A stretch of DNA of 64,000 bases from Polyangiales bacterium (GTDB taxonomy: Bacteria > Myxococcota_A > Polyangia > Polyangiales > Polyangiaceae), in the NCBI GenBank assembly GCA_038231275.1, contig JBBRLQ010000016.1, forward strand, positions 96,001-160,000, read 5' to 3'. The notes beneath the pieces are model-generated. The model searched no databases and was not told where the DNA came from. It worked only from the letters and a program-made list of their open reading frames with translations. Made by a program: the position numbers and the translations under genes. This document shows, piece by piece, positions 3,519-3,990 of this stretch (within the stretch, counting starts at the first letter, position 1; the number at the start of each line of letters is the position of its first letter).

Positions 3519-3962
3519 TCAGGGCACGTGGAACGCGTTGCAGGTGCCGTGGTGCTTTTGGTAGCCGTACCAGGAGTTGAGGCCGCCCGAGTCGTAGACC
3601 TTCTTCGCGCACGCGGCGTTCGTCGCCGGATCGAACAGCTCGCTGCGCGTCACGCCGCACGCGTGGAGCCAGATGCGATCGTTGATCTGGAAGAGCCCGT
3701 AGTCGACCGAGCCGTTGCGGTTGGTGTTCGTGGCCCTCGTGAAGTAGCTCGACTCGTACTTCGCGGTGCAGACCATCTTGGGGACGACCGACTCGTGGAA
3801 GCCGGCGTCGCGAAGGAGCTGCGCGATGTGCGAAGGCGTGAGCTGCGTCCCTGCGAGGAGCGGCGCGACGTCTTCGGTGGTGCCGGCTCCGTCGTCAGCG
3901 GAAGGATCCTCGCCGCCACACGCGAAGAGAGGGAGTAGCAGTGCAAGAGCGATTCGCTTCAT
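3519..3962 (-). CDS. Lipoprotein with c-type lysozyme (GH22)-like muramidase domain
   Basis: Lipobox LFAC; [10 protein letters not shown] (catalytic Glu), [22 protein letters not shown] (catalytic Asp), CAKKVY and GLNSW motifs. Confidence 0.88.
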   Translation of the reverse strand: [147 protein letters not shown]

Positions 3963-3974
3963 ACGGTGCGCTTC

Positions 3975-3990
3975 AGCAACCGACGTGCCG
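3975..3990 (-). promoter_or_regulatory. Putative sigma54 -24/-12 promoter of the lysozyme gene
   Basis: Minus strand CGGCACGTCGGTTGCT has GG-N10-GC spacing and is close to the TGGCACG-N4-TTGCW consensus. Confidence 0.65.

Follow-up and report, generated by a model that had tools for sequence, protein, structure and literature searches.

A predicted lipid-anchored c-type (GH22) lysozyme in a Polyangiales genome and its bacterial relatives

The gene at positions 3519–3962 (minus strand) of a 64,000-nucleotide stretch from the genome of an uncultured Polyangiales bacterium (assembly GCA_038231275.1, contig JBBRLQ010000016.1, positions 96,001–160,000; hereafter the window) encodes a protein of 147 amino acids, which is with high confidence a lysozyme of glycoside hydrolase family 22 (GH22), the family of the animal c-type lysozymes. 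Judged from sequence comparison and trees, the protein appears to represent a separate, old bacterial branch of GH22 and to be neither a recent transfer from an insect to a bacterium nor a member of the SLT family. It probably acts as a lipid-anchored muramidase aimed at the walls of other bacteria, and its bacterial relatives are found mostly in predatory lineages. The c-type lysozyme ranks among the most studied enzymes and its origin is unsettled; in the searchable literature it figures as an enzyme of animals, apart from a few examples in amoebae. The gene described here documents a large, selected and patchily distributed bacterial GH22 branch, concentrated in predatory bacteria, with relatives on giant-virus contigs. 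This lineage is of more interest than the single gene, for what it offers on how c-type lysozymes arose and on how bacterial predators live.

Protein anatomy and family assignment

The gene and its parts have the following positions in the window (ORF, open reading frame; pLDDT, the per-residue confidence score of AlphaFold2):

3519–3962, minus strand: coding sequence of the lysozyme, 147 amino acids, ATG start, stop codon at 3519–3521 (ORF list and translation)
3918–3962, minus strand: predicted signal peptide and lipobox, residues 1–15, codon of Cys15 at 3918–3920 (read from the sequence)
3852–3917, minus strand: acidic tether, residues 16–37, probably disordered (low pLDDT, composition)
3522–3851, minus strand: GH22 c-type lysozyme domain, residues 38–147, i.e. 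110 residues (Pfam Lys, PDB, AlphaFold2, Foldseek)
3753–3755, minus strand: codon of Glu70 (ctc on the plus strand = GAG), aligned with the general acid Glu35 of hen lysozyme
3702–3704, minus strand: codon of Asp87 (gtc on the plus strand = GAC), aligned with the nucleophile Asp52 of hen lysozyme
3963–4153, minus strand: upstream intergenic region of 191 bp, presumed promoter region, with the preceding minus-strand ORF beyond it (gene layout)

An earlier note on this DNA, made from the sequence alone, had described a bacterial lipoprotein resembling an animal c-type lysozyme and had placed it at 3519–3990. Every protein string quoted there is present in the translation of the ORF, which is real at 3519–3962 on the minus strand; the upper end (3990) needs correction, having been set 28 nt too far upstream of the ATG.

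The similarity to c-type lysozymes is far beyond chance. The Pfam profile Lys (PF00062) matches residues 45–137 over profile positions 7–112 of 123 with 63.7 bits (E 2.5e-17), compared with 40.4 bits for SLT_3 (PF18896) and 18.5 bits for SLT (PF01464), the respective cut-offs being 27, 27 and 21.3 bits. SLT_3 is thus over its cut-off yet 23 bits under Lys, SLT stays under its cut-off, and a weak match to Transglycosylas was also given by Pfam. This ranking (Lys, then SLT_3, then SLT) is the profile comparison that the earlier note had proposed as a check on GH22 membership, and the order of Lys over SLT_3 was kept in all relatives tested (14 of 14 and 8 of 8 proteins). The precomputed PF18896 label is not discriminating, because many named animal lysozymes carry it too. 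In NCBIfam nothing came near a cut-off (faint matches to IagB and RpfC, far sub-threshold), and PHROGs yielded a single weak match named "transglycosylase" (20.8 bits). Among PDB sequences, phmmer placed 2rsc_A (E 2.2e-20) and 1gd6_A (E 2.9e-20) at the top, both named Bombyx mori lysozyme in the Foldseek descriptions, and the best 60 of 286 matches (E ≤ 1) were all lysozymes or alpha-lactalbumins.

Structure prediction, likewise called for in the earlier note, yielded a c-type lysozyme. The AlphaFold2 model, built on an alignment of 45 sequences, has a mean pLDDT of 88.9, with means per block of ten residues of 59, 60 and 52 for residues 1–30, 86 for residues 31–40 and 97–99 from residue 41 onwards. 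When this model was compared with the PDB by Foldseek, all proteins among the 50 matches listed were c-type lysozymes or alpha-lactalbumins, the best being the Bombyx lysozyme 2rsc (TM score on the target 0.79, root-mean-square deviation 1.6, 42 % identity).

In an alignment of 36 bacterial or metagenomic and nine named animal sequences, the columns of C65, E70, S71, D87, G89, N94, C102, C118, A119 and W131 are invariant (45 of 45). The catalytic Glu and Asp of the family, Glu35 and Asp52 in the numbering of hen lysozyme, are matched by E70 and D87, so that both catalytic equivalents named in the earlier note are present. Of the eight cysteines of the animal enzymes, the first seven align in order with S44, C65, L99, C102, R106, C118 and C141, and the eighth falls beyond the end of the protein. 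With the pairing 1–8, 2–7, 3–5 and 4–6, corresponding to 6–127, 30–115, 64–80 and 76–94 in hen lysozyme, the pairs 2–7 and 4–6 are kept and the pairs 1–8 and 3–5 are absent as a whole, just as the earlier note had read them. The stretch from animal Cys3 to Cys4 is also about nine residues shorter, and the protein ends earlier at its C-terminus. Four disulfides are a criterion of c-type lysozymes, and the bacterial protein has the cysteines of two pairs; the full set is, however, typical of the animal members and not needed for fold or chemistry, so that the two-disulfide form is a variant and not a reason for exclusion. With two disulfides and about nine loop residues absent, the protein is a trimmed c-type lysozyme. 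As a natural minimal form (two disulfides, no long loop) it is useful for studies of folding and for enzyme engineering.

The N-terminus starts with M-K-R, followed by a hydrophobic run and the lipobox L12-F13-A14-C15 (read by eye from the sequence). The subsequent stretch up to residue 37 is acidic and rich in Gly, Asp, Glu and Thr, so that lipobox and acidic linker are both found where the earlier note had seen them. A basic N-terminus, hydrophobic core and lipobox, the pattern of bacterial lipoproteins, are all present, and lipidation is predicted from this pattern. The consensus was taken as [LVI][ASTVI][GAS]C; Phe at position −2 falls outside its strict form. Among family members starting with M, V or L, 57 of 72 contain a lipobox-like pattern (regular expression), and about eight further members with M, P or S at position −2 or −3 were recognized by eye. 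On these sequences, the lipoprotein form would be the rule in the bacterial GH22 family.

The gene is real, native and under purifying selection. Its GC content (0.649) and GC content at third codon positions (GC3, 0.872) stand next to a GC3 of 0.87–0.90 in five neighbouring genes. The closest relative (the ortholog L001), located in a metagenome-assembled genome (MAG) labelled Myxococcales, is 86 % identical, with a ratio of nonsynonymous to synonymous substitution rates (dN/dS) of 0.19; an independent metagenome contig (X3) differs by 14 in-gene substitutions, 10 of which fall on third codon positions (manual count). The genome to which the window belongs (9.28 Mb, 164 contigs, 94 % complete) harbours a second GH22 lipoprotein gene on contig C2 (C2:225232–225654, corresponding to L046:1498–1935), the product of which is 55 % identical and scores 63.4 bits with Pfam Lys. 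The counterpart of this paralog (L002; dN/dS 0.20) resides in the same MAG as L001. Because both copies have counterparts there, the duplication predates the split of the two genomes, and both paralogs are maintained.

Occurrence in bacteria and phylogenetic position

A word-seeded search of 5.8 billion proteins yielded 75 mostly metagenomic matches, 74 of them with a precomputed PF00062 label and some named "lysozyme C" by JGI. Exhaustive HMMER searching of 1.84 billion representatives gave 1467 matches at E ≤ 1e-3, 284 at E ≤ 1e-10 and 34 at E ≤ 1e-30, the long multi-domain ones being dipteran proteins. Close relatives in species-representative genomes amount to 17 loci (40–86 % identity), labelled Myxococcales, Polyangiales, Polyangiaceae, Labilithrix, Silvanigrellales, Pseudobdellovibrionaceae and, in one case, "Pseudomonadota"; the copy from the latter MAG groups with that from Silvanigrellales. 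The genomes closest to the window's gene are labelled Myxococcales, Polyangiales or Labilithrix. GH22 homologs are also carried by the complete chromosome of Labilithrix luteola DSM 27648, for which two PF00062 matches are counted; having a complete genome and a culture-collection number, L. luteola is the obvious organism for bench work.

Whole-genome scans with PF00062 revealed matches above cut-off in 3 of 401 genomes sampled throughout the phylum of the window, all three in the window's own family, which is that of Labilithrix. In this family 32 of 383 genomes, from 8 of 89 genera, gave a match, as did 24 of 131 genomes of a second phylum, which holds a Silvanigrellales MAG (L007) and a Pseudobdellovibrionaceae MAG. 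No match was obtained in 14 control genomes. Of the 32 carriers in the Labilithrix family, 20 belong to a single genus (g5), in which one genome (G563) coincides in its coordinates with the L. luteola record; the number of matches ranges from one to five per carrier. In view of this patchy occurrence the bacterial GH22 gene is accessory; it is sometimes multi-copy and is concentrated in lineages with predatory named members. Five matches were counted in one genome (G484), and tandem or closely spaced copies were observed at L008:4983–5741 and 5914–6402, on G578:C330 and on G484:C96; the tandem copies point to local expansion of the gene family.

Many homologs are longer. Many of the Labilithrix type (P0046, P0058, P0060, P0071, L014) possess, behind a Ser/Gly linker, a Cys-rich C-terminal module of about 70 residues with the pattern CWSGTL...C..S....W.QC..G.W......G.C, and those of the Silvanigrellales type (P0033, L007, L013) a different, beta-rich-looking module of about 80 residues. 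No Pfam family matched these C-terminal extensions; the modules may be cell-wall-binding. The cultured-phage database contained only matches of 31–32 % identity (actinophage tail proteins, Synechococcus phage) and no phage carrier of the close family. Two IMG/VR contigs (L062, L065; GC 0.44 and 0.32) carry short genes for GH22-type proteins with four cysteines, as in the bacterial form, which group with the metagenome sequences P0194 and P0200 (FastTree) and represent possible phage carriers of the bacterial lineage.

For the trees, named animal sequences came from two seeded searches and cover insects, crustaceans, a tick, vertebrates, a copepod, an ostracod and an acoel; early-branching animals and amoebozoans are not included by name. 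As outgroup, 13 bacterial proteins of greater divergence were taken from the same scan of genomes. For eight of ten outgroup proteins tested, SLT_3 or SLT is the top-scoring profile and Lys gives either no match or 17–28 bits, the exceptions being L029 (marginally Lys-best) and L044 (near tie), while all eight in-group relatives tested are Lys-best with 48–70 bits. In both exceptions, which stem from Candidatus Dojkabacteria MAGs, the Lys, SLT and SLT_3 scores are nearly equal (27–33 bits each); these small proteins may stand midway between the SLT type and the GH22 type of domain and could provide closer outgroups.

A FastTree phylogeny of 261 domains united all 100 sequences from the animal searches in one clade (0.996), around which the four-cysteine sequences were arranged. 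In the more careful IQ-TREE analysis (LG+C20+F+G4, 110 rows × 118 columns), all 35 animal sequences formed one clade (100/100) on a stem of 0.85, with no bacterial sequence inside. The 62 bacterial-like rows formed an unresolved rake outside the animal clade, in which the window's protein joined first L001 (100/97) and then L002 (94/81). The bootstrap of this tree was still unsettled (correlation 0.916), and of its 107 inner branches 51 lack resolution. The outgroup was separated at 99/89, and it is this branch that sets the window's protein, together with the Lys-type sequences, apart from the SLT_3-type bacterial proteins. The GH22 identity proposed in the earlier note is therefore upheld, and neither in scores nor in trees does the protein fall to an SLT-type family, be it by a better score or by nesting within it.

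The earlier note had also left a choice between cross-domain transfer and an ancestral bacterial GH22 lineage. A recent transfer from an animal to a bacterium is disfavoured by the closed animal clade and by approximately unbiased (AU) tests, in which forcing the bacteria together with three Lepidoptera cost 40.2 log-likelihood units (p 0.033; significant by a narrow margin). An old bacterial lineage fits the trees. The direction of an ancient transfer is left open by them, because the bacterial sequences outside the animal clade branch in unresolved order, and holding the 62 bacterial-like rows as one clade was not rejected (AU p 0.282).

Tentatively, animal c-type lysozymes, including hen egg-white lysozyme and alpha-lactalbumin, might descend from the bacterial two-disulfide lineage. 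A gene of a predatory bacterium would then have entered an early animal or pre-animal eukaryote and gained a loop and two disulfides there, a doubtful course of events for which bacterivorous protists or their giant viruses with intermediate ten-cysteine forms are a possible route. Trees rooted with SLT_3, in which the animal clade arises within the unresolved bacterial rake, fit this descent, as do the continuum of scores from SLT and SLT_3 to Lys and the long animal stem. Its tentative standing reflects a bacterial monophyly not rejected by the AU test, a signal confined to 118 columns and a sampling that includes no early-branching animals or amoebozoans by name. If true, it would parallel the proposal for g-type lysozymes.

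The ten-cysteine forms are encoded on IMG/VR contigs labelled giant-virus MAGs (GVMAG; L047–L061, L071; GC 23–40 %). In addition to the four disulfide positions of the animal enzymes they have one further pair, and in several of them a lipocalin-like region of about 180 residues is fused to the N-terminus. Metagenome sequences with nine cysteines inside the domain envelope (P0126, P0169, P0178, P0198, P0204, P0215) fall into one clade with them (0.935, FastTree). One clade member comes from a marine eukaryote transcript catalogue, and two longer members of the nine-cysteine group look eukaryotic, being rich in Ser and Pro in places and carrying, close to the C-terminus, a hydrophobic segment reminiscent of a membrane anchor. 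The GVMAG-labelled contigs may be mis-binned AT-rich protist DNA; a literature search returned nothing pairing a giant virus with a c-type lysozyme or GH22. The clade stands weakly with the animals in IQ-TREE (80/35) and with the Silvanigrellales type in FastTree (0.849), and since the two trees disagree, no conclusion is drawn from its position.

Proposed role and competing interpretations

According to the proposed mechanism, export of the lysozyme would be followed by lipidation at Cys15, and the flexible acidic tether of about 22 residues would keep it on a membrane. The compact domain would be stabilized by two disulfides, Cys65–Cys141 and Cys102–Cys118, and would lack the loop that is tied down by the Cys64–Cys80 bridge in the animal enzymes. 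In a retaining GH22 mechanism, with Glu70 in the role of the general acid and Asp87 in that of nucleophile or stabiliser, the enzyme would cleave the MurNAc-beta-1,4-GlcNAc bond of peptidoglycan by hydrolysis and leave reducing ends. The walls of other bacteria are the most likely target, because the gene is accessory and concentrated in predatory lineages; they would be attacked from the outer membrane surface or from vesicles, during prey lysis or competition. Taken as a whole, this interpretation is favoured with moderate confidence, lower than that in the enzyme family as such.

Several observations weigh against it. Related SLT_3-type proteins keep the Asp column too, so that, judged by sequence alone, the chemistry may also be that of a lytic transglycosylase. 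A lysozyme lipoprotein facing the periplasm would endanger the producer's own wall, and how a Gram-negative producer survives the export of a lysozyme through its own periplasm with no known inhibitor is a puzzle. Searches for the inhibitors MliC and Ivy (PF09864, PF08816) gave no match in the organism's own 94 %-complete genome, the same searches having matched 3 and 1, respectively, of 14 control genomes; no conserved immunity-like or partner gene was detected near the lysozyme at 16 loci. The predatory habit of this uncultured organism is one that we infer only from the names of its relatives. No sigma-70 consensus site was found in the upstream region at 3963–4153, the sole sigma-70-like site on the minus strand (3348–3321) being located downstream of the gene; likewise, the sole terminator-like site lies on the plus strand inside the lysozyme gene, and none is assignable to the gene. 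In a single metatranscriptome run (X5, contigs), one contig covered 4152–4289 in the neighbouring gene (about 93 % identity) and none the lysozyme gene; as all runs are contigs, this absence proves nothing.

The genes nearby are ordinary bacterial ones and encode a TonB-dependent receptor, a response regulator, a protein kinase, a dienelactone hydrolase, an ABC transporter, one YfiR-like and one JmjC-domain protein. Across the 16 GH22 loci none of them recurs, the shared ORFs being only those that overlap the lysozyme gene itself. This ordinary setting, which offers no tie to a predation locus, speaks for a GH22 hydrolase in other use, such as scavenging of peptidoglycan debris as food, antagonism towards kin or competitors, turnover of spore or cyst walls, or attack on chitin-containing fungal prey; c-type lysozymes are known for a weak chitinase activity, and the evidence for the enzyme is identical under either interpretation. 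Such uses are nevertheless rather unlikely, in that the restriction to known predator lineages (Labilithrix, Polyangiales, Silvanigrellales, Pseudobdellovibrionaceae) is most simply understood as feeding or attack, and they overlap with prey lysis instead of excluding it.

Improbable, yet deserving consideration, is a housekeeping enzyme, i.e. a wall-remodelling autolysin or a lytic transglycosylase of the SLT superfamily that resides at the inner leaflet of the outer membrane and acts on the cell's own peptidoglycan. Membrane-bound lytic transglycosylases (MltA–E of E. coli) are tethered lipoproteins, as the present protein is predicted to be. The passed SLT_3 cut-off (40.4 versus 27 bits), the weak matches to SLT and Transglycosylas, the faint ones to IagB and RpfC and that in PHROGs point in the same direction, as does the lack of an inhibitor or immunity gene in the organism's genome and at the 16 loci. 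Lys, however, scores 23 bits above SLT_3, SLT remains under its cut-off, and the PF18896 label does not discriminate. An enzyme without a match in 351 of 383 genomes of the family and 398 of 401 of the phylum-wide sample fits a core wall function badly; so do the one to five matches per positive genome and the invariance of the Asp52 equivalent.

A recent acquisition from an animal, e.g. an insect, or eukaryotic contamination of the assembly is very improbable. It is suggested by the Lepidopteran lysozymes that constitute the best solved and best named matches (42–45 % identity) and, as regards contamination, by a precedent: a 334-bp contig in a Phocaeicola assembly (L022) with an insect-type lysozyme N-terminus. 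This contig of the Phocaeicola faecalis assembly encodes the N-terminal 99 residues of a Lepidoptera-like lysozyme with a eukaryotic signal peptide and is almost certainly contaminating eukaryotic DNA, not a bacterial gene. The window's gene, in contrast, lies on a 210,748-bp contig, matches its bacterial neighbours in composition, carries a bacterial lipobox and has homologs on the complete L. luteola chromosome. The animal sequences form a closed clade in both trees, forced union with Lepidoptera is penalized, if by a narrow margin, and the bacterial clade itself is deep and diverse. Recent insect transfer and contamination were rejected on the grounds of native GC3, lipobox, the paralog in the same genome, dN/dS and the fully supported animal clade.

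That the protein only binds and does not catalyse, like alpha-lactalbumin among the GH22 members, as its alpha-lactalbumin matches in sequence and structure and its missing two of four disulfides and one loop might suggest, is scarcely credible given the catalytic residues and the N94, W131 and A119 columns, invariant across the bacterial family, and a dN/dS of 0.19.

Beyond the upstream region, long ORFs overlap on opposite strands at 4154–5749 (minus) and 4412–5764 (plus). The dienelactone hydrolase domain of the plus-strand ORF is confined to its last about 210 residues, and the minus-strand ORF has no Pfam match. The true genes at 4154–5764 are probably shorter and adjacent rather than overlapping, in line with the usual shadow-ORF pattern of high-GC DNA.

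Comparison with known lysozymes

Compared with animal c-type lysozymes (Bombyx mori, PDB 1GD6 and 2RSC; hen egg-white), the bacterial protein has the same predicted fold (TM score 0.72–0.79 on the target), shares 42–43 % identity with the silkworm enzyme, retains the catalytic Glu and Asp together with the invariant S, G, N, A and W columns around the active site, and keeps disulfides 2–7 and 4–6. In contrast to the freely secreted animal enzymes, it would be lipid-anchored via its predicted lipobox; it is without disulfides 1–8 and 3–5 and about nine loop residues, has a shorter C-terminus and stands outside the animal clade. The SLT_3 (PF18896) and SLT (PF01464) domains share the E-S... core and form the nearest outgroup in the trees, but most outgroup proteins are without the four cysteines, and they frequently belong to phage tail proteins or proteins of flagellar type. 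The ten-cysteine forms on giant-virus contigs resemble the bacterial form in the motif AGFPE..P.MVC.AKYESS and differ from it by the four animal disulfides with an extra pair, AT-rich contigs (GC 23–40 %) and lipocalin-like fusions.

The earlier note regarded c-type lysozymes as mainly known from animals, a point that needs correcting as to novelty. In its table of cell-wall hydrolases from bacteria, a 2019 review assigns "GHF-22, PF00062" to Labilithrix, Frankia and Enterococcus and gives the structure as "n.d." (PMC6403190), and the C-type lysozymes LyC of Dictyostelium are described (PMC5890168), which like the bacterial form represent GH22 outside animals. The review listing concerns the same family and the same genus Labilithrix; in the portion seen it is a database entry without enzymology, phylogeny, lipoprotein anatomy or distribution. 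A search of the literature, subscription journals and CAZy being outside its reach, retrieved no paper on enzymology, structure, phylogeny or distribution of bacterial GH22. What is new is a lipid-anchored (by prediction), two-disulfide, loop-shortened bacterial GH22 lysozyme from a catalogued yet unstudied lineage.

A parallel is provided by a sister family, the g-type (GH23) lysozymes: the passages searched of two papers relate myxobacterial enzymes to those of metazoans and propose transfer between bacteria and animals, and these passages report no bacterial GH22 or c-type enzyme (PMC11576321, PMC12855814). As in the present case, a lysozyme type regarded as "animal" is found there in predatory myxobacteria (PMC11576321, PMC12855814). 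With the bacterial GH22 branch at hand, the origin of the animal c-type lysozymes becomes testable by sequences and structures, in parallel to the question raised for the g-type enzymes and myxobacteria.

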